Of a DNA stretch of 64,000 nucleotides, positions 1 through 56,900 are shown piece by piece. Numbering within the stretch: position 1 is the first letter of the stretch; each line of letters starts with the position of its first letter. The position numbers and the translations under genes were made by a program. Under the pieces are notes generated by a model. The model did not search any database and was not told the DNA's origin. It saw only the letters and a program-made list of their open reading frames with translations. Source of the DNA: an uncultured Verrucomicrobiae bacterium (GTDB lineage: Bacteria; Verrucomicrobiota; Verrucomicrobiia; Limisphaerales; JAFGQR01); the NCBI GenBank assembly GCA_963788655.1, contig CAWBHS010000087.1:177044-241043 (forward strand), in the 5' to 3' direction.

Positions 1-2988
1 CCCTGGCGTCCTTCGCCCTGCCATCCGGGGTGGATTCGATGCATGATTACGAAATTTCCGTGACCACCACGTCGGTAAATTTTCGGGTGGATGGCGTGTT
101 GGCGGGGACGTTAACTGATAACATCCCGACGGGGGTGCTGAACGCGCATGTTGCCACCTATGACGGCGGCGCGGGGAACGTGCCCGTTACCCTGGACCGC
201 CTCTCGCTGTTTCTCGCTGGCAGTCCGGTGGCAAAACCTCCGGCGATCAAAGGCTTTGCGCCAACGCACGGTGCGGTCGGGGCGAGCATCGCCATTACCG
301 GCACAAATTTCAATGGCATCACCGCAGTTCGTGTTGGTGACGTGGAGGCCGCATTTGCCCACGACTCGGCGTCGCTGATCACTGCGGTGGTGCCGGCCAC
401 GGCGACCACGGGTTTGATCACCGTCGTTTCAACGAATGGCACCGCTGTCAGTTCAAGTAACTTCGTGGTGGACGTCCTGGATTTTACATACACGACCGAC
501 AACGATACTGTTACCATCACCGGCTACACTGGTTCCGGCGGGGCTGTGACCATCCCGAGGGCGATCAATGATTTGCCAGTCACTAGCATCGTGGGGTATT
601 TCGGTCCGCAATGGCAAAACGTGACCGGCATCACGATTCCCGACACGGTCACCAACATTGGAGATTATGCTTTTTATGGATGCACGACCCTGACCAACGT
701 CGTCATCCCCGAGAGCGTGATCAGCCTGCGAGAGGCGGCGTTTGCCAACTGCAGCCGTCTGCCGGGCGTCACCATTCCCAACCATGTCACCAGTATCGGC
801 GATAGTGCATTCCTTCGCTGTGTGAGCCTGACCAACGTCACGATCCCCGACAGTGTCGTGAGCCTTGGCTTCCAATCGTTCCAGGAATGCAGTGGCCTGG
901 CTCAAATCACGTTCGGAACCAACCTGGCCAGTATCGGAAATGTGGCGTTCAATCAATGCCCCCGTCTAACCACCGTGCTGATCCCTGCCAGCGTCACCAA
1001 CCTCGGGAATTATGCGTTCATGTCGTGCTATAATCTGCGCGGATCCTTTTTCGAAGGCGACGCCCCCGCAGGGGCAGGGATGGCGTTCCTCAATGATAAC
1101 CAGGCCACGGTTTACTACCTGCCAACGACGACGGGATGGAGCGCGAACTATGGCAGTCGCCCGACCACATTATGGCCGGCCCCGGTGATCACGAGTTTCT
1201 TGCCAACTATCGGAGCGGTCGGCACGAGCATCACCATCAACGGTACATACTTTACCACCGTCACGGCCGTTCAGTTCAGCGGCGTGGTCGCAGCGTTTGC
1301 GGTTGTCTCGGACACACAGATTGTCGCCACGGTCCCGGGTAACGGGGTTTCCGGTTCGATCACCATTTCCAATCCCGGCGGGGCGGCTGTCGGTGCCACT
1401 CCGTTTATTGTTCCTACGCTCATCGCCACAAGCGATGAAGCGAGTCTGGATGCCGCCGTGTCGAACCATATCGGGGTCGGGCTTTTTACCTGCGATGGGA
1501 CGATTGAAGTTTCGACGACCAAGGTGATTTCGTCGGACCTCACGCTGGATGCGGCCGGCCACCGCATCACGATCAGCGGCGGCAACGCCATGCGGGTGTT
1601 CAGTGTCGATCCTGGGGTTCATTTAAACTTACAAAACTTGACCATTGCCAACGGCCAGGGCACCTCGCTGGGCGGCGGAATTTACAATAACGGCGGCATC
1701 GTGACGCTCGTGGACTGCACCCTCACCAACAACACCGTCGTCGGCACGGCTGATGGAGGTCACAGTCTGGGCGGAGCTATCGGTAACACCAACGGATGGT
1801 TGGTCCTGAGCAATTGCACCTTCGCCTACAACCGCGCGGTCGGTGGCATCGGCTCTCCCGGGCCGACTGGCGGCGGGACCGGACGCAGTGGTGGCTACGG
1901 CCAGGGTGGGGCGATTGGTAATGCCGATGGCACGGTCGAGATGGTCAACTGCACCTTCGCTGGTAACCAGGCGATTGGAGGAGCCGGTGGGACTGGCGGA
2001 CGCGGGGCCAATGGTTATCAATACTGGGTGTCAGTCCCGTGGCCGGGCACCGGATATTACGCCACGGTCCCCGGCGGTCCGGGCGGGCACGGTGGCAACG
2101 GTGGCAACGGGGTTGGCGGCTCGTTGCGAAACAATGGCGGTACAATGACGATGGTCAACGTGACTCTGGCCCGCGGTTCAGTGGTTGGGGGCACCGGCGG
2201 TTCACCGGGTGCTCCCGGCGATTTTGGCACTGGCAACTATGGGCCAGGAACTTCCGGCTACAACAGTTCGGGCGGCAACCTTAGTGTTGGTTCGGGAAGC
2301 GTAATATCGAAGAACACGATTATTGCTTATGGCAGCGGCAACTCCGGATACAATTGCTCGGGAACCATGGTTGATGACGGGAACAACCTCTGTTCGGATG
2401 CGACCGCCAATTTTTCCAAAGCCAGCAGCTTGAACAATGTGGACCCCCTCCTGGCGGCTGAGTTGGCGGCCAACGGCGGTTCGACCCTGACTCTCGCCCT
2501 TTTGAGTGCTAGCCCGGCCATCAATGCCGCTGACGATGCGGTGGCCCCAACTGCCGACCAGTGCCACCTGCCACGCGCCGGTCTGAGTGATATTGGCGCT
2601 TTCGAATTTCAAAGCCCGGCGTCGGCTATCTCGTATGCCTGGCTGCAATACTACGACCTCGCCACGGACGGGTCGGCAGACCAGAACGATTCTGATTTGG
2701 ACGGCATGAACAATCTGAGGGAATGGCTGGCCGGCACCTGTCCGACCAACGCGATGTCGTGTCTCATGATGTTATCTCCGACCGCGACCGAGTCGGGAGT
2801 CGTAGTGCGCTGGGCCAGTGAAACCGGCAAGCGGTACTGCAGTCCAACGCAGCACCACCCTCGGTGCCACAGCGTCGTTCTCTACGTTGACGAGCAACAT
2901 CGTTGGACAACCCGGCACCACAACTTACCTCGACACCAACGCCGTTGGTTCCGGGCCTTGCTTCTATCGCATAACCATCCAGCCATAA
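1..2988 (+). CDS. 5'-partial large surface protein: IPT/TIG repeats, BspA-type leucine-rich repeats, Gly-rich beta-helix/choice-of-anchor Q region, DxDxDG module, FYR tail; frameshift ~2840
   Basis: Frame open from window edge. IPT repeats (PAIKGFAPTHGAVGASIAITGTNF; PVITSFLPTIGAVGTSITINGTYF), LRR_5 repeats (TIPDTVTNIGDYAFYGCTTLT), NGGSTLTLALLSASPAINAA..DIGAFE. After RWASETGKRY an alternate frame gives VQRSTTLG..TTYLDTNAVGSGPCFYRITIQP-TAA(2986-2988). Confidence 0.85.
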
Positions 2989-3067
2989 CCTTGGTTCAGC
3001 GGCATCAATGATGCCGTCGTCCGTTACCCGCGGACGCTCCGCGAAACAATGTCGAACAGTGAACCTG

Positions 3068-3370: not shown

Positions 3371-3410
3371 GCCCTATCCGTTAAACCGCTGGGTGGTGGC
3401 CCAGATTCGA

Positions 3411-6400
3411 TTACGGGTTCTGCACCCGATAGAATTTCTTGGTGGCCAGCGGCCCGGGCACCGTGTAGGGCGTTCCGGGATCACCGAGCACCGGCGTGTA
3501 GGGGCCTTCCAAGTTGTCGGCTTCGTAGAGCCGGAAGCCCGTCGCGGGCGGCCACGCGAGGGAGACGTTACTGCCGTCCACGCGCGCGTCCACGCGCATT
3601 TCGAGCGCGGGCACGTGAATCCGAATCTTCGCCGCAAAGGCCAGATCGCTGCTGGTGAGGTTGACTTGGTGGACTTCGGCGGCCAAAACGTTGTCACCGC
3701 CATTCACCACGTTGGTGAGCGGCAACTCGTAGGGGCCTTCCCACCGATACTCACTGCCTTGCGACCGGTTGGCGAAGGTTTCCCAAGTGAGAGCGCCTTC
3801 CGCCATGCCCACGCGCCGGGCTTCCTCCCCGTTGAGGTAGAACACCGCCCCGTCGTCAAGAACCGGCACAATCTCCAATTGATAAGATTGCAGTTCCGCC
3901 AGTTCCGCCAAAGAGGGCGCGGTGAAGTGGGTGCGCACGTAATAAGTGATGTTGGTTGTCCACGTGAGTTCGTCCACGGTATTGGTCCACGCCATCATCG
4001 TGGCCGGCGGAACGTCGCACGCATCCGGATTGATGGGGTTATTGAAGCGCGCGGCCCATAACAGCGCCGGACCTTCGGTCCAAATGGCGTCGTCATATCC
4101 CGCGCCGGTCCACGCCGTCCCCAGGTCCCGGCCGGTGTCCTCATACCTCCAACTGGCGTCCGCGGCCAGCAACGTGACTTCGAACGGCAGGAACAGCGTG
4201 GTGGGATTAGGATCCAGCACGTTGCGCCGGTAGGCGGCGTCCGTCAGGCCTCGAACGGTCAGCGTGAAATATTGCCACGCCGCCCGCGGGCTGGTGGTTA
4301 ACCGGACGGTGTCGCCATTGTCGGCCAGGTCCGCGCCCACGATCTGAACGCTGTCGCCGCCAAACGAAGGAGTCACTTCATAGTTGGACAATTCAGCCAC
4401 CGACAACGGATCAAGCGGTTTGGAGAAGTTCATCACGATAGTGGTGTCCGAAACACTTAGCGCGTCAAGCAACACCGGCGCGGTCGTGTCCGGGGTCACG
4501 GTCAACCCGGCGTTATCGGATTGCGCCTCGCTGGGCAGGTCGTTGCCAACCACGCAATAGTAGGTGCCGTCATCCGTCTCGACTGCGCCCGTGATCGTGT
4601 AGCTGGGACCGGTTGCACCGGAAATCGCCTCGCCATCTTTATACCATTGGAAGGCGGGCTGGGTGCCGCTGACCGTTATGCTGAAGGTGACTTCTTCTCC
4701 TTCATTGATGGTGGTGCTGGCCGCGGGCTGGGTGATGATTTGCACCGGGTTGGTGGCGCCCGAGGGCGTGTAAGTGACCGTCAAAAGCGGACGGTTGGCA
4801 GCGGTCGCCGCTTCGGAGGAGGCAAAGCGCCAGCCGTCCGAAATCGTGTTGGTGAGGAACCAGCCATAATTGGCCTGCCCGCTGATCCAGGCCTGCACCG
4901 AGTCGGTCACATCAATGGTGATCGGCGTGTCAATGGTCGTGTCGAGCGTGGACGGCACATTGGCAATGACGGCGGAAGCGGCCATCACGTCGTTGGCCAC
5001 AATGCCGCCAGCCCACGGAGTGTTCCACGTGTCGGTGTCGTTCCACGGCTGGAGCATGAGGTGCAGATCAATCGGCTCGCCCAAGTTCACCGTGAAGAAC
5101 GTCAGGCGGGCGGATTGGATGGTCGCATCCAGCGGCACCTGGCCCAGCGCCCCGCCAAGGAGGTTGTCGAACCGCAGCAATCCGCTGGTCAGCGGACTGT
5201 CGCTGTCCACCAACACTTCTGCCAGTGTGGCGTAGGAAGTATCAGGCGTCGCTTGGTCCAAGTAAGTGTCCACCGTCCCCGCATAGTCGCCGACGCCTTG
5301 CTGGAAGGTGGCCACGCCGCCGACGATGACGGTATTCGGGGACAAGGGATTGTCAAACAGGTCGGTCACGTTGGCAACCGTCAGCCGATAAACCTCTCCG
5401 GTCAGCGGCGTGTCCGTTTCCACGATGGCCTGCGTGTTGTCGGCCGCCAACTCCACGCTGGCGATGGCCACGCAGTTGGCTGCGTTGTAAGCATCGCAGA
5501 TCTGGTAGTTGAGCGGATTCCCGGCTTCGGTCGCGTCCACAGCTTCCGAAAAGGTCACCGTGATGGTGGTCAAATTTTCCGCCGGCACCGCCGACACCAA
5601 CTGCGGATCGGTCGCGTCCGGCGTGACCGTCAGGGTAGCAGCGTCACTCTCGATCCGGACGTCCGCCGCGGCGACAACGCACCGGAACTGGAGACCGTTG
5701 TCCGCGGGATAGGCGGTCTGCGCCACCTGGTAGTTCTTGAAGACCGCGCCGGGAATGTTGGTGAAGTTAGCCCCGTCGTCGCTGCGCTGCCATTGATAGG
5801 CAATCGGCGCGCCGGTGCTGCTGGTGGCGTCCGCGCTGAAGCTGGCGCCATTGGGGTGTTCCGCCGTAGCCGAAACCGGGGACGTGACAATGTTCACGTC
5901 GCCCGCCAATCCGGGCGGGAGGCCGGGATAGCCAATGCTGTTGGCGTCCAACCATTGAAGATTGGCGGCGGGCACCGTCTGGCCTTCCAAGCGCGCGGCC
6001 ACGACGAGGTAATCGCCCCCATTGCCTTCTTTATACAGGGCTTCCACCGCGTAGCCCTGACCCGCGATCAGGTCGAAGGGTGCGGAGGTCTTGTCCGACG
6101 GCGGCTCCAGGAAGGCCTCGCAACAGTTGGTGGCGAACGCCACCAACGTCAGACCCGCGGCGTCGGGACCGGCTGGATTGAACCACACTTCGGCGTCGTC
6201 ATCACTGCTGAGAAACAGCCGCCATTTTCCGGTGAAGGGCGGAATGAACCAGCCGCGGACCCGGCCGCCGTAGTTGTTGCGGGCGGCATCGTCCGGCCCC
6301 ACGGTGAAGACATTGGTGGGATTGAATTCGGTCAGGCCATAGATGGCATCCGGTTGGTCGGGGAAGGTGGGTTGGTCCGTGAGGTTGGTGATCGCATTGC

Positions 6401-9296
6401 CACCGCCCACGTCATATTTCTCGAACAACATGCCGCCGGCCTGGTTGAGCACCCAGGAACGGACGGGAAGGTCCACCGGGACCAGGCCGTTGCCCGCCAA
6501 ATCGGCCGGGCCTGCCAAAAAGCTCACCGTATAGAGGGTGTCGGGCGTCAGCGGACCGCTGGTTTCCACGATGAGTGCCCAGCCGTCGTTGGTGGCGACG
6601 GCGGCGACGGCATGCAGGCCTCCACTGATTTCGTAGCTAAACTCATCGATGACCGTACTCGCGTCCATCTGCTCGTCAAACTCCACAATGAAGCGGTCGA
6701 AGTTGGCGCCGGGAATGATCCGCGCCACCGTCGGCGGCACCACGTCGGCGTTCACCACGACTTGCGCGACGCTGCTGGTTTCCTCGTGCAAGGTATTGCT
6801 CACCTCGACCACATAATCGCCCGCGTCGGCCATACTGGCACTGGCCACGGTGTAGGTGGCCGAAGTGGCGCCGTCGATGGGCGTCAACGTCTCGCCGGCC
6901 TTTCGATACCATTGATACAACGGGACGGTGCCGGTGGCCTGCACGCTCAGGCTGAACGGACGGAATTCAGTCACTTCCGTCACGGCGGCCGGCGGTTGAG
7001 TGATGACGATGGGATTCACAAACACCGAAACCTCGGTGGCGGAACTGGTGAACGCACTGATCTCGTTTTGAACTTGAACATAGTAACTGCCCGCGTCACT
7101 CAAGCTGGCGCTGGGCACCGAGTAGGTGGCCGCGGTGGCACCGTCGATGGGCGTGCCCGATCCCGGGGTGCCCTTGAACCATTGGAACTGCGGATCGGAA
7201 CCCGTGACGGCAATGCTGAGGCTGAAGAGACTTTGTTCCTCCACGTCCAGCAGCGCCGGCGGTTGCTCGACGATGACCAACGGAACTGCCGGCCCGAGTT
7301 CCGCCAGCATGAAGACACTGAAGCCGTAAGCATACGTGTCCTGAATTGTGGTGGAACCGCCGCCGGTCGTGGGCACCGGTGCGCCGACGCCCACCGCCGC
7401 GAGATAGTTGGAGCAAACAATGGAAAAGGACGTTCCATTCGGCACGATTTCATCCCAGCCGATCAGGTCGCCCGTGCGATTCTCGCCCGCGTTCCAGGCC
7501 GCCTGGGTGACCGGCGCCAGGTTATTCCCGTACGGCGCCCAGCCATTCGTGATGATGCCTGGCGAGGTGGGTCCGGTAACGTGCGCCGGCGTGGCCGCCA
7601 GAACTCCCGTCAAGGTGGCCAGCCCCCACCGGCCCGCGTAACCATTGCCGCGGATGGCGGTGCCCCGGAACGCATAGCGTCGGCCGGGAACAAGGTTGGT
7701 AAAGGTAAAGGTCACGTTGGCCGTGTATGGCGTCGAGCCAAAGTAGAGCGCACTGGCGTTCCAGTCGGTCTTGTCGCTGAAGAGCAAAGCGGCCGGCGAG
7801 CCGGCATCGGGAGCACCGGAATCGCCCGTGGTCCCATTGATTGAACCGCTGGGCACAATCTCCACGCCCGAACTGGTCGGAGTCCCGTCCACAAAACTGA
7901 CCAATGGCCCGCCGGCCCCTTCGGTGGTGGTGATGGAATAGGTGGTCACGGTGGCAGCGGTGCCGTCTCCGGCGTCATGGTCGTTAAACGCCCGCCACAT
8001 CGTGCTGAGAATCTCGACCTCCGCCGTGTAGGCGTTCAATGGCGGGGTGCCCCATTGGTCGGTGACATTCTCCGTGATGGTCAGGATCCATTGTTGGCCG
8101 AGATCTTCGGGCATGGCGGTGGCGATCAAGACCCGGGTGTGTTCCGTTCCCGGAACAAACACAAAACGATCCGGATTGGCCGGGTCGGTACCCGAGAGCG
8201 CGAGTTGATCATCGGACGACTCATCGGTCACCAAATAGTCAGCAACCTCGAGGGCAGTATCGCCCATCGGCTTGCTGAAGGTCACCACAATGTTGGTATA
8301 GTTGGCCTGCCGTACGGCGGAAAGCACCGTCGGCGGCACCACGTCCACGGTCAGGGTAGCGTTGCTGCTGGTGATGGTATTGATGGGGTTGCTAAGCTCG
8401 ACTTGATATTGGCCATTATCGGCCGTCGTGGCTCGGGCAATTGTGTAATTCTCCAAGGTCGCTCCCGAAATCGGCGCTCCATCCTTGAACCATTGATAAG
8501 CAAACGGCGGCGATCCCGCAGGCTCCGATGTGAGCGTCACCGAATGGAACTCGGCAACGGTGGTGCTGGCCGGCTCGACGACGAAACTGGCCGGTTCACT
8601 GGTGATATCCACTGCAAAATTATCGATCGAGTAGGCGCCTTCAGTGGTGGCGTCACCGGTGGAGGTACCGCCGGGGCCGTTATCATCCGCCCAGAGGAGG
8701 TACAGCGTGGCGCCGTCAGCCCACGAACCCAGCGACAATCCCGCGGTCAACCGCTGGGCCCCGCTCTCAATGGTGAACGTGGAGAACTCCGGGATCAATT
8801 GCCAGCTTCCGGGCTCTCCCGTCAGGCTGAAGAAAGCCCGTTGGCCAAAAATGTGTTCACCAATCGGCTGCGCGGTGCCCTGGTCCAATTGGTTCCAATC
8901 ATAGGACACCGTGAGCCAGGCCAAGCTGCCCCCGGTGTTGTTCACCAAGGTCGCCATCAGGAGCGCGTAGGCATTGCCGGTCGAGCGGGTTTGGAGAAAC
9001 AAACCGGACGTGTTCCAGCGTCCCAGAGCATTCGCCGACGGCGGCATCGTGCTGCTCGAGGGGAGGGTCGTTGTGATGGCGCTGGCGGAGGCGTTGGCAA
9101 CCACCGCCGCATCCAACGCGGCCGCCGTAGTAAAATCGCCGCCGCCCCCCGCGACTGACAAGGTGGACCAATCGGCCACGGCGGGTTGAGTGTCAAAGGT
9201 CAAGGGGATGCTGCCTGATTCCACTGAGACGGCTCCCGAGGCGTTCGCGGCCCACAGGGTTCCGATTGCCAACCAGGCAAAGAATTGCGTTTTCAT
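3411..9296 (-). CDS. 1961-aa secreted modular protein: Ig-like and SbsA/Big_5-like domains, PA14, DNRLRE (CBM96-like), galactose-binding-like domain, FYR tail
   Basis: Signal peptide MKTQFFAWLAIGTLWAANASG; Ig repeats (YQWFKDGAPISGAT); PA14 (NYGGRVRGWFIPP..SSDDDAEVW..YKEGNGGD); DNRLRE-like (FQQGVGDYAGTVDTYL..LLRFD..IDVT..NYGW..RPLLTVTY); ends KKFYRVQNP. Confidence 0.9.
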   Translation of the reverse strand: MKTQFFAWLAIGTLWAANASGAVSVESGSIPLTFDTQPAVADWSTLSVAGGGGDFTTAAALDAAVVANASASAITTTLPSSSTMPPSANALGRWNTSGLFLQTRSTGNAYALLMATLVNNTGGSLAWLTVSYDWNQLDQGTAQPIGEHIFGQRAFFSLTGEPGSWQLIPEFSTFTIESGAQRLTAGLSLGSWADGATLYLLWADDNGPGGTSTGDATTEGAYSIDNFAVDITSEPASFVVEPASTTVAEFHSVTLTSEPAGSPPFAYQWFKDGAPISGATLENYTIARATTADNGQYQVELSNPINTITSSNATLTVDVVPPTVLSAVRQANYTNIVVTFSKPMGDTALEVADYLVTDESSDDQLALSGTDPANPDRFVFVPGTEHTRVLIATAMPEDLGQQWILTITENVTDQWGTPPLNAYTAEVEILSTMWRAFNDHDAGDGTAATVTTYSITTTEGAGGPLVSFVDGTPTSSGVEIVPSGSINGTTGDSGAPDAGSPAALLFSDKTDWNASALYFGSTPYTANVTFTFTNLVPGRRYAFRGTAIRGNGYAGRWGLATLTGVLAATPAHVTGPTSPGIITNGWAPYGNNLAPVTQAAWNAGENRTGDLIGWDEIVPNGTSFSIVCSNYLAAVGVGAPVPTTGGGSTTIQDTYAYGFSVFMLAELGPAVPLVIVEQPPALLDVEEQSLFSLSIAVTGSDPQFQWFKGTPGSGTPIDGATAATYSVPSASLSDAGSYYVQVQNEISAFTSSATEVSVFVNPIVITQPPAAVTEVTEFRPFSLSVQATGTVPLYQWYRKAGETLTPIDGATSATYTVASASMADAGDYVVEVSNTLHEETSSVAQVVVNADVVPPTVARIIPGANFDRFIVEFDEQMDASTVIDEFSYEISGGLHAVAAVATNDGWALIVETSGPLTPDTLYTVSFLAGPADLAGNGLVPVDLPVRSWVLNQAGGMLFEKYDVGGGNAITNLTDQPTFPDQPDAIYGLTEFNPTNVFTVGPDDAARNNYGGRVRGWFIPPFTGKWRLFLSSDDDAEVWFNPAGPDAAGLTLVAFATNCCEAFLEPPSDKTSAPFDLIAGQGYAVEALYKEGNGGDYLVVAARLEGQTVPAANLQWLDANSIGYPGLPPGLAGDVNIVTSPVSATAEHPNGASFSADATSSTGAPIAYQWQRSDDGANFTNIPGAVFKNYQVAQTAYPADNGLQFRCVVAAADVRIESDAATLTVTPDATDPQLVSAVPAENLTTITVTFSEAVDATEAGNPLNYQICDAYNAANCVAIASVELAADNTQAIVETDTPLTGEVYRLTVANVTDLFDNPLSPNTVIVGGVATFQQGVGDYAGTVDTYLDQATPDTSYATLAEVLVDSDSPLTSGLLRFDNLLGGALGQVPLDATIQSARLTFFTVNLGEPIDLHLMLQPWNDTDTWNTPWAGGIVANDVMAASAVIANVPSTLDTTIDTPITIDVTDSVQAWISGQANYGWFLTNTISDGWRFASSEAATAANRPLLTVTYTPSGATNPVQIITQPAASTTINEGEEVTFSITVSGTQPAFQWYKDGEAISGATGPSYTITGAVETDDGTYYCVVGNDLPSEAQSDNAGLTVTPDTTAPVLLDALSVSDTTIVMNFSKPLDPLSVAELSNYEVTPSFGGDSVQIVGADLADNGDTVRLTTSPRAAWQYFTLTVRGLTDAAYRRNVLDPNPTTLFLPFEVTLLAADASWRYEDTGRDLGTAWTGAGYDDAIWTEGPALLWAARFNNPINPDACDVPPATMMAWTNTVDELTWTTNITYYVRTHFTAPSLAELAELQSYQLEIVPVLDDGAVFYLNGEEARRVGMAEGALTWETFANRSQGSEYRWEGPYELPLTNVVNGGDNVLAAEVHQVNLTSSDLAFAAKIRIHVPALEMRVDARVDGSNVSLAWPPATGFRLYEADNLEGPYTPVLGDPGTPYTVPGPLATKKFYRVQNP

Positions 9297-9777: not shown

Positions 9778-12700
9778 CTACCGCCGGAGACGATAGAATC
9801 TTTGAGTGCCGGTCGGATTCAAGGGCAGACCATTGAATCCGCCCAGGCACTTCGATGTAGGGGCCGGCGGGATCGGTGGCTTCTTCGGGCACGCCGGTGC
9901 CGGTCCACATCAGGCACAGTCCGGCGGCCGGGTTCGCGGGATTGAGTCGTAGAGAAAAGATACGGACGGGTGCCGCGGGCGGGATCGTACTCGGCGAGGA
10001 GTTGCAGGCCGAACAGACAGTCCGCGCTGGCCGTGCCGTAAGGGTGCAGCTCGCTGGCAATTACATTGGCGCCGGCTTGGATCATGGAGGGCGGCACGTT
10101 GGTGGACGCCAGCACCGCGTCACCGTCAGAACCCGCATTGGTCGCAAAAGAAACGCAGACCGTCGGCCATCTTGAAGCGGAACGCCTCGGTGCCATTGAA
10201 GTAGCACACCAAACCGTCGTCGATTACGTGATTGACCACCAACTCCGCGCCGGGCGGCAAACTGCCTCGGGTCCAATCAAAGCGGCTGCGCAAATAGACT
10301 GTGTTTTGCGGTCGCAGAGTGGTTTGAATCGGCGAGGGAAGGGCGTTCAAAATCAAAGGATTATCTTCAAAGCCCAAAAGCCCCGGGCCGGTTGGCCAAG
10401 TCGTGTCGTCAAAAGCGGCGTTGAACCAAGCGAGGCCATCGTAGTTGTCCGCGGTCGTGCGGGCATCGTCGTAACGCCACGGGGAATCCCAATCGAGCAA
10501 GACCAGTTGCTCGACGATGGGCAAGCCCTCCGGCATCAGGACCGGGTGGGGAGAGGCTGCGGTGTCGGTGACGCCGGTAGTGACATACACGAAGTAAGGA
10601 GTTCCGAACGTCAGGGAAGTAGCCAGAGTCAGCTTCACGGTAGCTGGCGCCACCAATACGGCGGCCTCGATGGCGACCAACTGAAACTCCGGCGTCAACG
10701 TGTAAAGGACGTAGTTTTTGGCAGGTTCGGCACCGGCGGCCGCCAGGGGGTGGTCGAATTCCAACTCGAGGGAGTTGAGGCTGCCGGTCGAGCGCGACAC
10801 CGCCGACAGCAGGTGAGTCGGCTTGCCTCCGCTGATGACCCGCAACACTGAATCTGAACTGGTGATGGTGCTGGGCACGTCATTGCTGACGACGCACCGA
10901 TAAACGCCGGCATCCGCAGGCCGGGCGGTTGTGATCGTGTAGGCGCTTTGGTTGGCTCCTGGAATATCCTCACCGTCCTTCTGCCATCGGTACTGGGGAT
11001 CGGTGCCCGACACCGCGACCGAAATCGAAACCGGGTCGCCTTCAGCCACGATTTGCGATGGCACCGGCTGTTGCTGCATGGATAATGGGACCGGCGTTAG
11101 GGTGCCCAACCAATCAACCGCCAACCGTGGACGAGTGTCGATGAGCGCTCCTTCGGAGGAACCAAACATATACCCATCCGTGCGGTGATTGATCAGGCCC
11201 CAGCCGTAGTTGGGTGCCCCATTGGCCCAGGCTTGGACAGAGGCGGTCACGTCGATATCGATGAATTCACCGACAGTAAACGGACTGATCGTGGCAACGG
11301 CCGGTTCGACGATATCGTTGGTGATACCGTCACCGCCAAGGGTATTCCAAGTGTCGTCCAGGGTCCAAGCAGTCGCCATCTGATACAAGGAAACGTCATC
11401 GCCGTTGTTCGTGGTGTACAGGCGCAAGGTGGCCGAGTAAATGGTGGCTCCCGCCTCGACCTGGCCAGGGTTGCTGCCAAAGAGGCCGTCAAAGCGCAGC
11501 AACCCATGGCTGACCGGAGACTCGCCATCGGTCAAGACCACAGGACGGTCACCAAAGGTGGCATCTGGTTCTGCGGCACTAACGTACGTATCTTCCGTTC
11601 CCGTATATCCATTGACTCCCTGCTGAAAGCCCGTTGCTGTTGCTATAGAAATATGGTTCGGATACAGCGCATTGCCGGCTGGATCCGTTACGTTGTTGAT
11701 CGTAAGGGTGGACCCACTGGGCAAAGGATCGGCCGTCTTGATGGTGGCCACCGTGTTACTAACCGAGAGGGTCACCGCCACAACGCCATTGACGGGCGCA
11801 ATAACATAATTTGTAGGGTTGGCAGCTTCCTGAGCGTCCACGCCTTCCGAGAAGATGACGTCGACGGTGGTTTCGTCGAATTGACGTACGGCGGAAATGA
11901 TCATGGGCGCGGTGGTATCTGCGATTACTTCCACAGTGATGACCGGGCTGTTGGTCGAATTGCCGATGGCATCCGTAGCTCGCAGATAATAGTCTCCCGC
12001 GTTCGCCAGTGTCGCCCTGGTCACCTGGTACGAACTGGTGGTGGCCTCCGGGTCAGCCACGCCGTCATGGAACCACTGAAACTGTGGATCAAGCCCAATG
12101 ACCCCAAATGTTAGATTGAAGGCATCTCCCTGCGCGACCACTAGATGATTCGTTGCCGGAACGGATACAATGGCGACCGTCGCCACGGGCGGCAGGATCG
12201 CTAGAATTTGCGCGCCAAACACATTGTCCGAACTGGTCGTGGCGACGGCATGGAGGTCTGCGGCGACGATGTTATTGCCCTGGTGAAGCAGGCTGAGCGG
12301 TAATAGATTCGTTGCCACCACGGTCTCATCGCTGAAACCAAAATCATCCGCCAGAGTCGTGTGAGTCATTGTGACCGGCGCCGGCGGCATCTTGTAACGG
12401 AAGGCCTCGGTGCCATTGACATGGAACACTACGCCGTCATCAACCGTATGGCGAAACTCAAGCTGCACCGCGGGATCCACGGCGCCGGGCGCGAACGGCC
12501 AGTGCACGTCGGTTTTGCGGTAATAGGACGTGAATTGATTCGCGATGACCTCGGTGTTGATGGCGCCGGCATTGGTCGTCAGATAGGTGATGGTATCGGT
12601 TGTGGTTTCCAAGCCCAGGAGGCCCGGGCCTGAAGCCCAAAGAGAATCGTCATAAGCCGGATCATAAAAGGGCGGAACCACGGTCAGCAGGTCGGTGTCC

Positions 12701-15346
12701 GAGGCTTCGTATTTCCATGCGGCGTCCCAATCGGCAATTATGAGGACACTGGTCACCTCCAAAGTGATCGGTTGGGGAATGAAATTACCGAAGACATCGG
12801 CGACTCCCGTCACGGTCACGCCGTACCGTTGGCCAAATGGAGCGTTGACGGTGAACTGCACGGTGCTGGCATTGACCATCGTCGGGTTCGACAACGAAAC
12901 TGCTGGTGACAGCATGTAATTGGCCGGGTTCAGTGAGGTAGGAGGATCCATCGGTTTACTGAACTGTGCCGTCAGCGTGGTCAGCGCAGTGCCGCCTGCC
13001 CCGGAAGCCGAGGCCGAGATCACTGCCGGAGGTTCGCCTGGTAAGACGGTCACGGCAATTACCGGGCTGTTGGTCGAGCTGGGAAAGTCATTCGTGACCT
13101 GAAGAAAGTAATCCCCGGAATCGCTTACTCTGGCCATCGTGCGGGCGAGGGTTGCCGAAGTTTCTTCCGGCAGTGCCACGTCGTCCTTGAACCACAACAA
13201 GTGCGGGTTCGAACCATACACTTGAAACGTGATCGCGAACGAATTGCCCTCGTTCACAACAATGTGGTTGGTGGACGGGACCGCCGTGATTTCCACTGGC
13301 AGGTTCGTGACGGCGGAATCCCAATCGATGATCAACGCCGGACGCCACTCACGGGTGGCATTTTCTGAAGTTGGCCAATCGAACCCTCCGTCGGAGCCCG
13401 TGCCGGAATTGATCAGGACCCAGCCGTAGTTGGGTTGACCGTCAGCCCAGTTCCGGACCGAACTGGAAACGTCCACATCGACGTAACTGTACGGCGGGTG
13501 CGGATCGAAGGCGACCACGCTGGCGGCCTCGGCTTCGATGTCGTTGGTGGCCACGCCGCCATCCAGCGAATTCCAGGTGGAGGAGCTGTCCCAGGACACC
13601 CGCATGTTGTGCAGCGCGATGTCGAACCCTGGGTCCTCAACGTAAAACCGCAAGATCGCTACGTTGATGCGGGCGCCAAAGGGGACTTGGTTGGCAGCTT
13701 TGCCAAAGAGGTTGTCAAACCGGATCAGACCCTGGGAATAGGGCATGCTATTGTCGGTCGTCAGGATGTCATCCGTACCGTGGCTGATGTCAGGATAATC
13801 GGCTTCGATCTCGGTATCCACCGTCCCGGCGTAGCCGTCCAGGCCCTGCTGAAATAAGTAAATCGTGGGAATTTGGACCGGCACCACCGCCAGGCCCGCC
13901 AGCGGATTGCCGGCCAGATCTTGCACGTCAATGACGCCCAGCACATAAGGCTGGTCCACGTCCGGAGGCATGGTGGTGGTCAGCACCACCTGGCTAAATC
14001 CGCCGTTGGTAAACACCAGCGGTTCGGTTGGCAGCACCGTCAGACAATCCGTCCAACCGCTATCCGTGCAGACAGCATACTTCATCCGGTCCAGGGCGTT
14101 GGTATCCATCTCTTCGGAAAACGTCACGATGATGTTGGTGCGATTCACCTGGCGCACCGCGGACAACACGGTAGGAGCATTGGTATCCGGCAAAACACTC
14201 ACCGTGACCGGAATACTGGTGATGCTATTCGTGGGATTGGACACCACCACGTAATAAGGCCCCGCATCCAAAAACAGAGCGCGCTCGACAAAATAGGTCG
14301 AAGTAATGGCTCCAGAAATGGGGCTGCCCGAATCCGGAGTGCCACGGTACCATTGGAACTGCGGGGCGGTGCCGGCCACCGCAACGCTCAAGCTAAACGG
14401 ATGATTCTCGCACGACGTTCGTGGACATCGGTGGCTGCGTCATCACAATCTCCTCGGTCGGGCTGTACCTCACTTCGGACAGTTCGATGGCTTCCAGGGC
14501 ATAGCAATACGTGTTTTCAACTGTGGCCGTCCCACCACCCGCCTTCGGCACGGGCGCGCCGCTGGCGACCAGCGTGTGGTAGTTCGAACAAATCACCGAA
14601 AACGACGTGCCCTCCGGTATGATGCGATCCCAACCGATTACGTCACCCATCCGGTTTTCGCCGGCGTTAAACGCCGCCTGCAAGTCGGGGATCATCGCGT
14701 CGCCGTAAGGGGCCCAGCCGTTGGTGATAATCCCGGGAGATCCCGTGCCCGTCAAATGGACCGGTACGGCGCTGCTGGCGCCTTGCAAGGTGACCAGCGT
14801 CCAACGGCCCGCATACTGATTTCCCCGCACCATGGTGCCCCGGAACGAATACGTAGCTCCCGGTGTAAGATTGGTAAACATGAACGTGACCGCCGCATCG
14901 TAAGGATTGGCGGCAAAATAGAACGCGCTGGTGTCCCAGTCGATCTTCCCCCCAAAGATCAAAGCGGCCGGCGAGCCGGTGTTCGGCCCCCACGTGCTGC
15001 CATAGGCGCCACTCACCGAACCGACGACGGTGATATCGACTCCCACTTGATTCGGCAGGGCCGCGCCGGTGAGAAAATCGGTTAATGGGCCGCCCGCCGT
15101 GCCGGGCCCGCTGGGAGAATAGCTGGTCACGTTGGCCGCCGTGCCGGCGCCACGATTGTAGTCGTTGTAGGCCACCCAATTGGTGGCGGTTTGGGCTCCA
15201 TGGCCGAAGGGCAACCAGGCCAACCCGGCAGCCAGCGCGAGCAGTTTTCCTTTCCAGAGGGGGGTGAAGGTTGCGTGCCGGTTTGACCGAATCTCAACGG
15301 TGCCGGCGGTGGCTGATCTCAAAGAAACTGCTTGAATACGTTGCAT
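9778..15346 (-). CDS. paralogous ~1850-aa secreted modular protein (Ig, 2x DNRLRE-like, 2x galactose-binding-like, FYR tail); about 4 frameshifts
   Basis: Strong SD (GAGGAGGGAGGAACCAAC-ATG). ORFs 14393-15346, 10126-14391, 9819-10196 and 9758-10060 join into one architecture, with shifts near 14400, 10165, 9980 and 9840. Final frame reads FNGLPLNPTGTQRFYRLRR-TAG(9778-9780). Confidence 0.8.
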
Positions 15347-33103: not shown

Positions 33104-33181
33104 TCCCCGGTCGCCGGTCGGTTGCGACGTCCACCATTTCATCTGGCAACGTCGTGGTCAAAGCTGCTAAGTCTTTTGGCC

Positions 33182-35350: not shown

Positions 35351-35365
35351 CTGAGCAATTCCTTT

Positions 35366-35560
35366 CCCTCTCACTCCGGCCCTCTCCTTTGGGGAGAGGG
35401 GGAATTGCCGGCCGCGTCGTAGGCAATCGGAACCTGCTTGGAGGTTGTGCGCATTTTGTTCCGGATGGCCAAACGGAGTCATCTGCCAATTTCACACTCA
35501 AACCTTCAAGTGCCGCCGCCGGCTGTTCCCTCTCCCGCGGGAGAGGGTCAGGGTGAGGGG
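35366..35560. repeat. inverted pair of CCCTCTCC..GGAGAGGG palindromic repeats
   Basis: CTCACTCCGGCCCTCTCCTTTGGGGAGAGGG versus CCCTCTCCCGCGGGAGAGGGTCAGGGTGAG. Confidence 0.75.
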
Positions 35561-35581
35561 CAATTGCAACGCAAACCTCCC

Positions 35582-37000: not shown

Positions 37001-37020
37001 CGCACCGAACGGTCAGGGAC

Positions 37021-37050
37021 CACGAATGCACACGAATGGACACGAATGGA
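37021..37050 (+). repeat. three tandem 10-nt repeats
   Basis: CACGAATGCA CACGAATGGA CACGAATGGA. Confidence 0.8.
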
Positions 37051-37161
37051 TTGGGGGATCGAATGATCGAACTGATTTCGACCTGAAACTTCCTCAAAAG
37101 CCCTCCGGCAATTGTCGCGCCATTCGTCCAGCCAACCCGCAAAGACCTTGGACAGTTCCAC

Positions 37162-37234
37162 TTCACCGCAAAGACACGAAGAGCGCAAAGGTTGTGGGTG
37201 ACCATCTTTGCGCTCTTCGTGTCTTTGCGGTGAA
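37162..37234. repeat. perfect 29-bp inverted repeat, 15-nt loop
   Basis: TTCACCGCAAAGACACGAAGAGCGCAAAG / CTTTGCGCTCTTCGTGTCTTTGCGGTGAA. Confidence 0.9.
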
Positions 37235-37448
37235 TCAGAGCACCCTCCCGCGTCACAACGTTCGAAGTCAACTCGCGCGTCACTTGGGCCACAACCCGCT
37301 GACCTTGGTCCCTTCCTGGCTGCACGACTGGCCTGCACGAATTTCGCACGTCGCACAAATCTTCTTCCGCTTTAGCCCTTCAACCACATTGCTTGCCGCT
37401 TTGCCCGTTGCTGCTCGTCGTCGTTGAATTGAACAGTCACCCGTTTTT

Positions 37449-39561: not shown

Positions 39562-39600
39562 ACTATTTCGTTCGATGGGTATTCTGATAATCCGACTATC

Positions 39601-44804: not shown

Positions 44805-44996
44805 GGAAAGTCCGAAGACCGAAGGGCGAAATCTGAAATATGCCCGAAGACAGAATACCAAATGCAGCTTCAGAATCGATCAAAATTCAGAATTGATTAT
44901 TGGCCAAGGTTTCTGTATAAACCTGCCAATCAAGCGCGCTGCCCGATTTCACTTGAGTTGGGTGGCCCGTATAAACGCCGAATTGCCGAGTTAGCC

Positions 44997-47776
44997 ATGA
45001 CATTATTTCAATCGATTTGTTCTTGCCGAATGGCGGCCATTGTCCTGACCGCTCTGACCACCACCGCCGCTTCCGCAGCCACGCTTCATGTCTCGCTGGA
45101 CAGCGTTAGTCCGACGCTGCCTTACTTGGATTGGGCGACTGCCGCTCACACGATCCAGGAAGCCGTGGATGCGGCTATGGCTGGCGATACCGTGCTGGTT
45201 AGCAATGGCGTTTACACCGTCGGCAGGCAAACCATCACTGGGACGGGGACCAACCGTTTGGTCATTGACCGGGCAATTGCCGTGCGCAGCGTCAATGGGC
45301 CAGAAACGACCATCATCACCGGCGATGCGGGCACCGATGGCGGTCTTGGCGATGGGGCCACCCGCTGCGTCTATGTTGGGTTGGAATGCTGTTCTGGACG
45401 GGTTCTCCCTCACCAACGGCCACGCGGGCAGCGGTGGCGGCGCCTATCTGCAACGCCAGCGCAGTGGTTACCCATTGATATCATCAGCGGTAACTTTGCT
45501 GAAAGCGGTGGCTGGCATTTCTTTCGGCGCCGTTTATGGTTCATTGATTGTCAGCAACTCAGCCAGCAATGCAGGTGGTGGTATTTCAGGAACTGTGGCA
45601 TCCAATTGCACTGTGCAGGGGAATTCTGCCGTTCGTGGCAGGGGGAGGTTCTCTCGGTGACACTCTATACAACTGTATCCTGATTGGAAACCAGGCGTTC
45701 CATCATGGAGGTGGGGCCACGGACAGCACACTGTACAACTGCGTTGTTACCGGCAATTCAGCCAGTTTCACCGGTGGGGGAATATATGGCTCTACGCTTT
45801 ATAATTGCACCGTAACTGGCAATTCGGCCAGTTCCGGCGGTGGCGTGGATACGAGCTCGCTTTCCAATTGTTTGGTCTATTACAACGTGGCGCAAGAAAC
45901 AGCACCAGAGCCCGCTAATTATCGAAACTCGTCTATCTCCTTTTCCTGCACCAAACCGCTGCCGCCGGGCCAGGGCAACTTTGCTGACGAACCTCAACTG
46001 GCCTCTGCGGAGCATTTGTCGGCTACCTCGCCCTGCATTGGCGCCGGCAGCAGCTTGGTCAGCCACGGTGTGGACATCGACAGCGAGCCATGGTTGGACC
46101 CGCCCTGCGTGGGAGCGGACCAGTTCGTTGCCGGCTCGGCTACCGGTGCAGTGTCGATGACGATCGAGTTGACCTGGTCGCGGTTTGCCACCGATTTTGC
46201 CGCGCCACTTGTTGCTCATGGCACAGGACCGCTCACGGCCAGCGTCTGGGATTTTGGCGATGGAACCTTGGTCACCAACCGGGCCTATATCAATCATGCG
46301 TGGCGGGCGCCCGGAATTTATCCCGTGCGCTTGACCGGCTACAACGACAGCTTCCCTTCAGGGATTACCACCACCAGTAAGGTCGAGGTGATTGAAGCCG
46401 TTCATTACGTGAACACTGCCAATCCAACTCCAGCTTACCCGTACACTACCTGGCCGACCGCCGCGACGAACATCCAGGACGCCATCAGCGCCGGACTGAC
46501 TGGCGCGCGGATTTGGGTGACCAACGGAATCTATGACTGCGGCGGTGTCGCCGTGTACGATAACGTCACCAATCGCGTCGCCTTGACCAATGGCGTTCGC
46601 GTGGAAAGCGTCAACGGGCCGGCCGCAACCATTATTGCTGGCGCTCCGGCGGAGAACGGAGGCAACGGCGACGAGGCGATCCGGTGCGCCTATGTGGCAA
46701 ATGCTTCAGTGCTCAGCGGCTTCACCCTGACCAATGGCTATACCCATACCAACCGGGATTCCTATCGATACTACAATGCTGGTGGAGCATGGTGCGAGCC
46801 CTTGGGAGTGGTGACCAATTGCCTGTTCACAGGGAATTCAGCTTACGGCGCCGGCGGGGGAGCCTCGGGTGGAAGCTTGTTTAATTCGGTGATAACGGGC
46901 AACACTGCCGATCTTGTGGGCGGGGGAGTTGCTTCCAGTACGCTATACGATTGTCTGATTTTCGGAAATGCCGCGAAGGATGCTGGCGCGGCCACTGGTT
47001 GTCTGCTCTTCAATTGCACCGTGGTCAGCAATTCATCTCCCGGCGGTGTGGGCGGTGTATTTGTATCCTCGCTCGTCAATTCCATCCTCTATTTCAACCA
47101 TAACAACACTGTGGGCGACCTTTCGAACCAGCGCCGTTCAACCCTTGACCATTCCTGCACCATTCCCCTTCCTGATGACGCTGGCAGCGGCAATCTGACC
47201 AATGCACCGGTCTTTGTGGACGCTGCCGCCGGTGATTTTCGGCTGCGCTTCGGTTCGCCCGGTATCGATGCCGGCACCAACTTGACCGGTCTTCTCGCGG
47301 ATGATTTCGCCGGCACCCTGCGTCCTTTGGACGGCGATGGTGATGGGATCGCCGCTTTTGACATGGGCGCTTACGAATTGGATTTGCGCAGCGTCATCGA
47401 TGCGGACTGGTATTGGCACTATGGGTTGGATCCAACCAATCCGGAAGTCGTATCCGGCAATCCCGACCACGATCCGCAAACCACGTTTCAGGAGTGGATG
47501 GCGGACACTGATCCAACCAACGCGCTTTCCTTTTTTCGCCTCGAGGGCATCTCGAACGTTCCTCCGGCAACTGTTTATTTCCCGAGTTCCACGAATCGGC
47601 TGTACACCCTGTTTTCCAGCACCAATCTCCTGGACGGCAACGGGGGCGACACGGCGCCTGTCTGGATGAGTGTACCCGGCCAGACCGACGTTCCCGGCAT
47701 CGGCACCACCAAGGCACTGAGCGACGCGAGCGCCACCACCAACACTCTCTATCGCGTTGGCGTCCGCGTGCCTTAG
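44997..47776 (+). CDS. secreted protein: two parallel beta-helix/choice-of-anchor Q modules, PKD domain, YR tail; frameshifts in ~45385-45635
   Basis: Signal peptide; duplicated PY..W.TAA..IQ.A module; TLYNC..TGNSA repeats; WDFGDG PKD motif; DMGAYE; ends TLYRVGVRVP. Confidence 0.82.
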
Positions 47777-47907
47777 AGCCTGTTTTAAAACTCCATCCGA
47801 TCTGTAGCAGCCGACGTGAGGAGGCTCATTCTATTTCGGAAAACCGTGCTGCGTTCGCCAAGAATGAGCCTCCTTACGTCGGCTGCTACCATTTTTCAAA
47901 CAGGCTC
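47776..47907. mobile_element. 132-nt MITE-like element carrying a REP doublet (copy B), TTA direct repeats
   Basis: TTA|GAGCCTGTTT ... AAACAGGCTC|TTA; same 28/25/36/25/18 layout as copy A. Confidence 0.85.
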
Positions 47908-47925
47908 TTAAGTTAGCGATCCAAC

Positions 47926-50260: not shown

Positions 50261-50273
50261 AACTTGAGTTCCG

Positions 50274-53761: not shown

Positions 53762-53838
53762 TGGATGCTGGATGCTGGATGCTGGATGCTGGATGCTGGA
53801 TGCTGGATGCTGGATGCCGGATGCTGGATGCTGGATGC
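53762..53838 (+). repeat. heptamer tandem repeat (TGGATGC)11
   Basis: 11 units counted, one CGGATGC variant. Confidence 0.92.
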
Positions 53839-53908
53839 CAAATGTTGACGGGGTGGGGCCGAGATGGTTCGGCCACCACGCTCCTCGCTCATTTACCTAG
53901 GACCGCGC

Positions 53909-56900
53909 TTACGGCATCCGTGGCTGCAACCGCAGGCGGTAAAGCTCCTCGCCGGTGCCGGGAAGAATTGAGTTCGTATAGTGCATTTCCACCGCGGAAT
54001 TCTGCACCGTGCCCAATTCGGCCCACGTCTGGAGATTGGCCGTGGATTCGACGGTGTAACGGCTGCCGGGCGTTCCATAAATCGTCAGGTGCATTGCTCC
54101 CTGGGACAGCAGTTCTCCATCCGCAATGGCCGGCCGCACGATGAGTTCGGCATTCTGGCTGGGCACAATCCCTGCACCGTTGGCCACCACCACCGAGTAG
54201 TTGCCACCGTCATTGTATTGGGCGTCGGGCAGGACGTAAGCGCTGCCGCTGGCGCCCACAATGTTCGTGCCATTGCGCCGCCATTGGTAGGACAGCGGCG
54301 TACTGCCATTGACCAGCACGGAGAACGTCACATTGCTGCCGGCATTTACGATTTGCATCTGCGGCGGCGTGACAATACTGGGGGCAACGCGGATGGTGAG
54401 GCTGGTGGGCGCGCTGGTGACTGACCCCGAATTGTTGCTAACGATGACCTGATAAATGCCTTCGTTGCCGGACTGAACGTTTGATAAGGCCAAGGTCGTG
54501 CTGGTGGCGCCGGCAAGGTCCGTTCCGTTAAACTGCCAGCGATAGCTCAGTGGCGCCGGCCCGATGGCGGTCACGCTGAACGTGACATCGGCACCTTCGT
54601 TCACAATCTGGCCGACCGGTTGCAGGGTGATAATGGGATTCGAACTTTGCAGGCTCATGTGGAACGTGATCTTGCCGTAGTCATCGGTGCTGTAACCGTC
54701 CACGGCGATCTGGTACGCGGTGCCACTGATGGCCGTAAAGCTGACCTGGCTCCACGGAAAGCCACCGCTGTCGTCGTCGGCCGCCACCAACCGCAGGTTG
54801 GATAGCGCCGGGGAGGTGGGCGAGGTGTTGGTGTACACGGCCATGATCGTATCGAAGCCGCTGCCGATGGTGTCCATGATGCATTGACCGGACGCCGGGG
54901 CGGTCCAGGTCAGCCAGCCGGAATGCTTGTTGTTGCGGTCGAAGTGCAGGGGCTCGCCGCTTTGGCTGGTATAGCCGGTGTTGTTGCCGGTCACCAGGTT
55001 GGTGTAACCATAAACCGTTCCGCGGGCGGCGAAGTCATCCGCGAAGGTACCGCCTGGCAGAGTTATGATGACGGTCACCGGCGCGGAAATCGTCGCCAAC
55101 CCCCGGTCGTCGGTGGCCCGGGCGGTCAAGGCGTATTGTCCCACCGGCATACCGCTCCAGGACGCACTGTACGGGGCCTGGAGGTCCGTTCCCAGAGAGC
55201 TCTCGTTGGCGAAGAATTCGACCTGCACCACGGTGCCATCCAGATCGTTGGCCGACGCGGTAATGGTGATGGTGGAATTGGTGGTGAACGAGCTGCCATT
55301 GGCCGGACTGCTAATGCTCACAATCGGTGGCGATAGTACGGACAAGGCTGCCGCGCTGCTCACCGCGTTGCCCACCCGATTCAACACCCGCACGGTGTAT
55401 TGTCCCACGTTGCTGAGCTGGACGTTATTCAACGTCAACGTGGCGCTGGTGGCGTTCGGGATGGCGGTGCCGTTGAAGAACCATTGATAGACCAACGGCG
55501 CGGTGCCGCCGGCGGCTACATTGAAGGTGACATTGGCGCCGCGGAACGCTTCCACGCTAACCGGATGATCGACAATAAAGGGTGCGGTTTCGATAGCCAG
55601 GATCGCGACCGTGCTGGTGACGGCGCCGTAGTTGTTGGTGATCACCACGGCGTAATTGCCTTCATTGAATTTCTGCGCGTTGGGCAGGCTTAGCGCCACG
55701 TTGGTGGCTCCCGCCAGGAGATTGCCATTTTTCAGCCATTGATACCGCAACGGCGGGGTGCCGCCGGCCAGCACCGAGATAACCGCCGTGCTGCCCTCAG
55801 CGACCACCACGTCTCGCGGGGGTCGAACAATCTCCGGCGGCAGCGCGAGGTCCACCCGCGTGGACTTTGAGCCCGCCCCGGCGACGTTCCAGGCCAGCAC
55901 CGAGTAGGTGCCGGCATTCGCCGCTTGCACGTTGGTCAGCACGAGGCTCGTGTTGGTGGCTCCCGGCAGAATGGCGCCGTTGAAACGCCATTCAAGAAAC
56001 CGCGGCGTGGCTCCAATAACGACCACGGACAAAGTCACGTTGGCCCCTGGGTTCACAAACTGACTCGGCGTGATGGTTAAAATGCCCGCTGGCGAGGTGA
56101 CGGGCGAGCCAGTGGGGCGCCCAGCCGTCGCTGTGCCGGCGATCCAATTCACCGGGTCGTTGCCATAGTCTGAGTCTTTGCGGCGTTGTAACGAGCTGCC
56201 GGGCGCGGGCGCGGTGCCATCAGCGGCCGCCGGCCAGGGCGCCGTGTCGGCGTAGCGAACGTGGTCCACGAACACGTACGGCACATAGCCGGCATCCGCG
56301 TTGCCCGGCGGCAGCGGACCATCCGGCTTCTTGAGTTCGATGTCATCGGTATCGTTGGCCAGCTTGCCTTGATATGGTCCCAGGATGGGCACGTTGGCCG
56401 CGATGCTGTAGAGCGCGCGGAACGCGGCCAGTTCGGTGGCATTGGTGGTGGGATCAAAACTGACCACCAACAGATTCCCTCCCGCGTCCAACGTGGTGTT
56501 GGCGGGGAAATCAAAATCCACCGCGTCGCGCAGCCGCCAGGTGTTGGTCGGGTACGCCGGATCATACAACGGCACGGATTGCGAGGTGAAGTTGTACAGT
56601 TCAATGAACTCGTCATGCACGTTGTCGTTGGTGGTGGTGCCGGACACGATGTCCGGCGGGTGATACATAATCTCGTTGATCACCACCGGGCCGACCTGGG
56701 GATAGGCATTGGCCGCGCCGAGGCCAGTGCGGAAGGTCGAGATCAGGTTGGTATGGCTGCTGGCCGTGACCGCGGTGCCGAAGGTCAACTGGCTCAGCGT
56801 CGGGAAGTCCACCTGCACACTGGTTTGGTAACGACCGAGGGACACACCGTTCTCCGCGGCACTGAAACTTACGCCTCCGCGATAGCCCAACAAGTTGCCT

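Follow-up and report, generated by a model that had tools for sequence, protein, structure and literature searches.

The C-terminal tails of the window

The stretch of DNA analysed here, referred to as the window, is the last 64 kb (64,000 nucleotides) of contig C87 (CAWBHS010000087.1) in assembly GCA_963788655.1 of an uncultured Verrucomicrobiae bacterium. The assembly spans 8.96 Mb in 115 contigs and is 86% complete, and the G+C content of the window is about 59–63%. Five of the proteins encoded in the window end in a small domain, here called the tail, which closes with an [FL]YR motif a few residues before the stop codon. The labels T1–T5 denote the five tails and the proteins that carry them, and all coordinates are window positions (Table 1). 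The initial annotation of this DNA, made from the letters alone, had reported the five tails, and translation located each of them with its stop codon where that annotation had put it. Two tails were said to be hidden by frameshifts; these proved to be T1 and T3, which are reached only across frameshifts by three-frame translation, while T2, T4 and T5 lie in intact open reading frames (ORFs).

Table 1. The five tails and their carrier proteins in the window.
Feature	Position	Strand	Content and basis
T1 carrier	3..3011	+	LRR_5 and TIG (Pfam); N-terminus, with a Sec-like signal, lies upstream of the window (read in C87)
T1 tail domain	2766..2988	+	Three-frame translation; ends CFYRITIQP, stop 2986-2988; +1 frameshift near 2843
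T2 carrier	3411..9296	-	1961 aa; Ig_3, I-set, Big_5, CBM96; N-terminal Sec-like signal
T2 tail domain (short sub-type)	3411..3620	-	Translation; ends KKFYRVQNP, stop 3411-3413; HMM E 1.2e-5
T3 carrier (T2 paralogue)	9778..15346	-	Ig_3, Big_5, CBM96; broken by frameshifts; Sec-like signal in upstream ORF 14393..15346
T3 tail domain	9778..10060	-	Three-frame translation, pieces over at least 2 frames; ends QRFYRLRR, stop 9778-9780
T4 carrier	44862..47776	+	PKD; Sec-like signal in N-terminal ORF 44862..45683, separated by a frameshift
T4 tail domain	47531..47776	+	Translation; ends TLYRVGVRVP, stop 47774-47776; preceded by a TSP3-like ...DPTNALS motif
T5 carrier	53909..63999	-	Three overlapping ORFs with LTD, CotH, Ig_3, Big_7, PKD; cut by the contig end
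T5 tail domain	53909..54115	-	Translation; ends ELYRLRLQPRMP, stop 53909-53911; HMM E 1.8e-11

A hidden Markov model (HMM) was built from 89 further tails found in this genome, and each of the five was scored against it at a Z of 101,079 ORFs. Judged by this independent model, T5, T2 and T1 are members of one family. The piece of T1 that follows the frameshift (2806-2985) matches with an E-value of 1.8e-5, and the piece that precedes it covers HMM positions 3-36 weakly, with an E-value of 10. T4 matches a model built without it only weakly (E 0.37), and it is placed in the family because it has clear relatives of its sub-type, as judged by eye. The ending of T3 is reached after at least 3 frame changes downstream of ORF 10126..14391, as seen in three-frame translation; the last piece (9781-9909) is the sole part of T3 that matches the family model, again weakly (E 0.67), and T3 is included because its carrier is a paralogue of T2 and the two tails resemble each other by eye.

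The frameshifts are not confined to the tail genes. A sulfatase (37449-39561), an IlvD-type dehydratase (47831-49464), a glycoside hydrolase of family GH2 (26889-30103) and the giant CotH/LTD protein that carries T5 (53909-63999) are all split into overlapping ORFs in different frames, which suggests that single-base indels are numerous in this assembly. A search of sequencing runs gave one DNA run, with 0.05 of the sequence words, and no RNA run. Since such breaks also affect ordinary genes here, the hidden T1 and T3 tails are probably the result of assembly indels and not the remains of pseudogenes. The three overlapping ORFs of the T5 carrier are probably one giant gene interrupted by frameshifts; its product has the tail and, besides it, a CotH kinase-like domain, at least 6 stretches of Lamin Tail Domain (LTD) and Ig, PKD and Big_7 domains.

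A Sec-like signal is present in all four carriers in which it could be assessed (T1–T4), the N-terminus of T5 lying beyond the contig end. The five proteins had been described as carrying unrelated cargo. This holds in that domain content differs among the carriers, but T2 and T3 share the Pfam set Ig_3, Big_5 and CBM96.

A family of terminal domains in one genome

This genome has 18,942 stop-to-stop ORFs with a length of 150 aa or more. Of these, 174 end in [FLYW]YR followed by 1-10 residues, against about 54 expected, and about 125 of these endings visibly share one domain. The HMM of 89 tails finds 204 domains in 201 of the 101,079 six-frame ORFs; this is a lower bound, because T2 and T4 are not on the list and are found only with the filters off. 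The copies lie close to the stop codon: 156 end within 5 aa of it, 22 at 6-15 aa, 3 at 16-50 aa and 23 more than 50 aa away, so that 178 of the 204 are C-terminal at a cut-off of 15 aa. Counted from the YR, 127 of 171 tails run on for another 4-6 residues before the protein ends. Of 178 tails, 93 have proline as their final residue, compared with a background of 8.5% in the other ORFs of at least 300 aa across the genome. This proline probably marks the domain boundary, since in tandem arrays (see below) the same proline starts the linker to the next unit.

The most conserved positions of the alignment are a tryptophan (94%), an arginine (96%), a tyrosine (86%) and a phenylalanine (83%), although F-Y-R owes part of its near-invariance to the choice of seeds, which were picked for the HMM by the FYR motif. 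The tryptophan is unaffected by this selection, as are the further conserved positions outside the seed-selecting motif, namely a leucine (76%), a second tyrosine (71%), an aspartate (64%) and a glutamate or glutamine (79%). A TSP3-like calcium-binding motif of the form ...N..EY.AGTDP.D..S stands in front of many tails; it is seen in the window at 47504-47560 and 2700-2770 and at loci L001, L004 and L007-L012.

Position, export signal and cargo in well-assembled genomes

A signal-peptide heuristic applied to the ORFs of this genome did not discriminate, scoring 49 of 126 family members and 1,624 of 5,720 other proteins; it is uninformative here because frameshifts break many N-termini and because too many starts are scanned. 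Since the assembly is so rich in frameshifts, distant genomes with clean assemblies were sampled instead. Five genomes from other families, all well assembled, supplied 60 matches: four of them gave their full total of 51, and the fifth gave the 9 best of its 76.

In this clean sample the stop lies no more than 15 aa beyond the domain in 54 of the 60 cases and 24 aa beyond it in one; the remaining five copies are internal or lie right after the signal peptide. A Sec-like signal is found by a strict heuristic in 50 of the 60 proteins, and five more look signal-like by eye; the chance rate of the heuristic is about 6%, from 1.1% per pseudo-start and 5.5 starts scanned. The initial annotation had proposed a profile search of exactly this kind, in which mostly C-terminal matches paired with a Sec signal would support its idea, and that is the pattern obtained both here and in the genome of the window.

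The cargo was scanned with Pfam in 46 of the 60 proteins, those of up to 1,300 aa. Its enzymes include GH16, a porphyranase, GH98, a GH115-like protein, SASA esterases, a polysaccharide deacetylase, peptidases of families C25 and C1, and a purple acid phosphatase. The other domains include BNR/sortilin, cadherin-like, LRR_5, F5/8C, malectin and FG-GAP. No cytoplasmic-type domain occurs in the scanned cargo, in which 20 proteins have no family at all. Each protein has one tail, whichever of the dozens of unrelated kinds of cargo it carries. In the overwhelming majority of cases the domain lies at the very end of a Sec-exported protein, and the cargo of these proteins is diverse and extracytoplasmic.

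Predicted fold of the tail domain

The tail is not recognised by the family models of Pfam or NCBIfam. The five tails of the window have no Pfam match at E ≤ 10 and no NCBIfam match at E ≤ 1. A set of 43 aligned tails compared with both collections gave noise only, with Tissue_fac in 2 of 43 (0.0082), fn3 in 1 of 43 (0.078) and Amuc_1099_fam in 3 of 43 (0.025). A full-text search of a limited literature collection found no paper on this domain.

The T5 tail, modelled by AlphaFold2 from the 43-row alignment, is predicted with a pLDDT of 86.6 and a pTM of 0.73 and has six strands as assigned by DSSP; the model of the T2 tail is also beta-rich but less confident (pLDDT 73.1). Foldseek gave no match in the PDB at E ≤ 1e-3. 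With VIA-align, run against 48,161 chains, fibronectin type III (FN3) domains fill most of the top 50 places, with Z scores of 6.9-8.3 and root mean square deviations of 2-3 Å over 70-80 residues, although a Z below 8 can reflect a common arrangement. Examples are 6q9m_B (Z 7.8, 2.2 Å over 70 residues), 7jgu_A (Z 7.6 over 72) and 3mpc_B (Z 7.5 over 74). The aligned ranges end 12-16 residues before the ends of the FN3 chains, which would fit the lack of a G strand in the tail. The tail reads, in these models, as an FN3-like beta-sandwich of about 55-80 aa that ends after the sixth (F) strand and has no G strand. The R-[FY]-Y-R-hydrophobic motif forms the last strand of the modelled domain, and the protein ends 4-6 residues later, often with proline. 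The motif tyrosine may be the counterpart of the FN3 tyrosine corner, and W, Y and L, together with the aromatic-Tyr of the last strand, presumably follow the FN3 core positions.

The predicted beta-sandwich topology is the same as that of FN3 (PF00041), whose members are the best PDB neighbours found. In contrast to FN3, the tail is modelled with six strands instead of seven and is almost always terminal, and the fn3 HMM is silent on the window tails and all but silent on the aligned set. The initial annotation had described a small, beta-rich, C-terminal domain in five proteins; the description of the domain agrees with the models, and the family reaches well beyond five proteins, with about 200 copies per genome and a spread over much of the phylum.

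Distribution of the family

A profile search of a library of 1.84 billion proteins returned 66,191 cluster representatives at E ≤ 1e-3, 7,782 at E ≤ 1e-10 and 105 at E ≤ 1e-30. The taxonomy of these relatives is that of the ESM Atlas labels; the neighbours in the ESM Atlas are unnamed clusters, most commonly of Verrucomicrobiota. Of 30 relatives from the same order, 29 have the domain, each with 19-146 matches; the one genome without it is of 2.6 Mb. In a sample of the phylum 62 of 151 genomes carry the domain, and its presence is patchy by family (13/15, 5/5 and 5/5 in some, as opposed to 1/15, 0/24 and 0/14 in others). Genomes as small as 1.7-2.3 Mb in this sample retain 2-8 copies. The family is very large, belongs mainly to Verrucomicrobiota, and is absent from Pfam and NCBIfam.

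Internal, tandem and stand-alone forms

Not every copy closes a protein. Several database proteins are pure tandem arrays of the domain, in which the last unit still closes the protein, and in database protein P0012 a unit of TSP3 and tail is repeated three times. Stand-alone forms were found at L081:415-750:- (genome G119) and L095:412-759:- (genome G179). These are proteins of about 112-116 aa that consist of a lipoprotein signal with a lipobox cysteine and one domain, and they resemble each other although they come from distant families. The tandem, internal and stand-alone forms together suggest that the domain does something itself and does not merely flag a free C-terminus. The stand-alone lipoprotein was considered as a universal anchor and rejected: it is present in only 2 of the 5 clean genomes, and phmmer finds no such ORF in the genome of the window.

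In the genome of the window some copies lie N-terminal to a sequence resembling FGE-sulfatase (SUMF1-type), on contigs C21, C78 and C49; this sequence was named by eye from its motif.

Comparison with known C-terminal modules

The C-terminal domain (CTD) of type IX secretion system (T9SS) substrates is cleaved by the sortase PorU, and the protein is attached to anionic lipopolysaccharide (A-LPS). Peptidase_C25 is the family of PorU and the gingipains. It was found in 25 of the 151 genomes of the phylum sample and is enriched among those with tails, occurring in 20 of these 62 and in 5 of the 89 without. One locus of genome G179 (L093:83-3379:+) encodes a Peptidase_C25 protein with a propeptide, a TSP3 repeat and the tail itself.

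As described in PMC10202324, the T9SS CTD is a small beta-sandwich at the extreme C-terminus of diverse Sec-exported cargo, in proteins that are restricted to Bacteroidota. The tail is similar in being a small C-terminal beta-sandwich, as predicted, on Sec-exported cargo of many kinds and in many copies per genome; it differs from the CTD in that its hosts are Verrucomicrobiota and that it also occurs in tandem, internally and alone. None of the 43 aligned tails matches the T9SS CTD models of Pfam or NCBIfam, whether of type A (PF18962/TIGR04183) or type B (PF13585/TIGR04131). Searches of five tail-rich genomes for SprA_N (PF14349) and for Por_Secre_tail (PF18962) found neither in any of them, but the control was silent in both searches, with no match in any of the 14 control genomes for SprA_N, and the sensitivity of the SprA_N search is therefore unproven.

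PEP-CTERM, the substrate tag of exosortase (PF07589/TIGR02595), is likewise a C-terminal tag of exported proteins and occurs in the same phylum. Unlike it, the tail has no PEP motif, no transmembrane helix or hydrophobic span and no basic end. Exosortase homologues are present in all 5 tail-rich genomes searched; in the genome of the window a regular expression finds only 2 PEP-CTERM-like ORFs, neither with a tail, as against 178 tails. The earlier statements that the tail matches neither the T9SS CTD nor PEP-CTERM, and that it has neither a transmembrane segment nor a KxxK end, both hold.

A further analogy is the dockerin of cellulosomes, also one small C-terminal module on many secreted enzymes; the tail resembles it in this and in its place beside calcium-binding-type repeats of the TSP3_bac kind. 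Dockerin, however, is a pair of EF-hands and the tail a predicted beta-sandwich, and no cohesin-like scaffold was identified in this analysis.

Possible role of the tail

The tail is best described as a real, uncatalogued FN3-like end module, for which a role in sorting or anchoring is plausible. In order of preference it may be a handle, an ordinary module or a true export signal. Our tentative choice, which we hold to be possible rather than probable, is that the tail is a shared folded handle for the surface retention or sorting of Sec-exported proteins. The carrier would be exported by Sec, whereupon the tail domain would fold; the folded tail would then act as a common, probably uncleaved handle, by which many exported proteins may be held at, or handed to, one shared putative partner in the cell envelope. 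The outcome would be retention at the surface or sorting, and the tail would not be a binding module specific to its cargo. A handle is preferred to a pure signal because tandem arrays still end with a copy and because stand-alone lipoprotein forms exist.

Several observations weigh against such a handle. Clustering of the genes within 3 kb of 178 tail genes in this genome revealed no recurrent partner; the neighbour clusters are fragments of the same giant proteins, antisense ORFs and common kinases. A PorU-like C25 sortase as a required partner was rejected, as Peptidase_C25 is absent from 42 of the 62 tail-bearing genomes. Secretin, of type II secretion systems or type IV pili, is uninformative as a candidate, being present in 147 of the 151 genomes and in all 62 that have tails. 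Internal or N-terminal copies amount to 23 of 204 in this genome and 5 of 60 in the clean ones (about 8-11%), and the best-scoring database proteins hold 2-33 stretches of the domain, as one would expect if the module served an ordinary purpose in structure or binding. The most conserved residues, W, R, Y and F, could all stabilise the fold and need not form a binding surface. The qualifications given above on the Z scores and on the selection of seeds by the FYR motif count in the same direction. Some of what the initial annotation had named as adverse to its idea is among these findings, in part, since the fold is FN3-like and internal, tandem and stand-alone lipoprotein forms exist; cytoplasmic cargo, another of its concerns, did not appear among the 46 scanned proteins.

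If the tail were simply an FN3-like module serving as a structural element, spacer or binding domain (for glycans, for example), without any part in sorting, its C-terminal position might come from a 3′ cassette of TSP3 and tail spread by recombination. FN3-like modules are common in bacterial extracellular enzymes, and the predicted fold, the tandem copies, the copies N-terminal to FGE-sulfatase-like domains, the frequent TSP3 motif in front of the tail and the repetition of the TSP3 and tail pair in P0012 all agree with this. We nevertheless consider it somewhat unlikely because the terminal bias is too strong: 87-90% of the copies are terminal and end 4-6 residues past the motif, a distribution unlike that of ordinary FN3, Ig and PKD domains, and the same carriers hold their Ig, PKD and Big domains internally. 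Nor would one tail per protein over dozens of cargo types, or the upkeep of several copies in genomes as small as 1.7-2.3 Mb, be expected of such a module. Another view, that the tail is a dedicated signal for export across the outer membrane by a putative translocon, perhaps cleaved and replaced by a surface anchor as an analogue of the T9SS CTD, appears unlikely to us. Its logic would be that of the CTD as presented in PMC10202324. The strict C-terminal placement, the dozens to hundreds of copies per genome and the cargo classes typical of T9SS substrates (carbohydrate-active enzymes (CAZymes), C25 peptidases, adhesins and giant proteins) speak for it. It is at odds with the internal and N-terminal copies, the arrays and the lipoprotein stand-alones, which lack either a cargo for export or a free C-terminus. 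In addition, there is no match to PF18962/TIGR04183, none of the 5 genomes searched gave SprA_N (though the control was silent too), and neither the neighbouring genes nor C25 nor secretin yielded a candidate translocon or sortase. The idea that chance or base composition produced the shared ending when G+C-rich DNA was translated can hardly be right. The weak matches of T3 and T4 to the independent HMM would fit it, but it is refuted by the excess of observed over expected endings, the 204 HMM matches, the confident fold and the tens of thousands of relatives.

The initial annotation had gone further and inferred an export or attachment pathway. Its premises stand, in that the domain is mostly C-terminal, paired with Sec signals and uncatalogued, but no machinery was found among the neighbours or through C25 and secretin, and since this is so the pathway is still only a proposal. 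In its full form, with the tail as the recognition domain of a putative outer-membrane export or surface-attachment pathway of Verrucomicrobiota and a counterpart of the T9SS CTD, we regard it as unlikely. If it were correct, about 2% of the proteome in large genomes, including CAZymes, proteases and giant adhesins, would be routed to the surface by this domain. We know of no established mechanism by which Verrucomicrobiota bring their many proteases, giant adhesin-like proteins and enzymes for polysaccharide breakdown to the cell exterior, nor of any universal secretion tag other than that of the T9SS of Bacteroidota. A handle of the kind we prefer would point to new envelope machinery; the tail might also serve as a predictor of the surface and secreted proteome in a phylum abundant in soil and sea, and as a portable tag for surface display. 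About 180 proteins of a single genome are closed by a domain for which Pfam and NCBIfam have no entry. The domain recurs in tens of thousands of protein clusters and is, with hardly an exception, a mark of exported proteins; even as a structural end module it merits a family entry, since a great many proteins contain it without annotation.

Other genes of the window

The sulfatases, the GH2 enzyme and the PQQ propeller of the window lack the tail, in agreement with the initial annotation. Four sulfatase genes lie in a row on the forward strand (33122-41178), all tailless; one of them has a Laminin_G_3-like and another a PA14 domain at its C-terminus.

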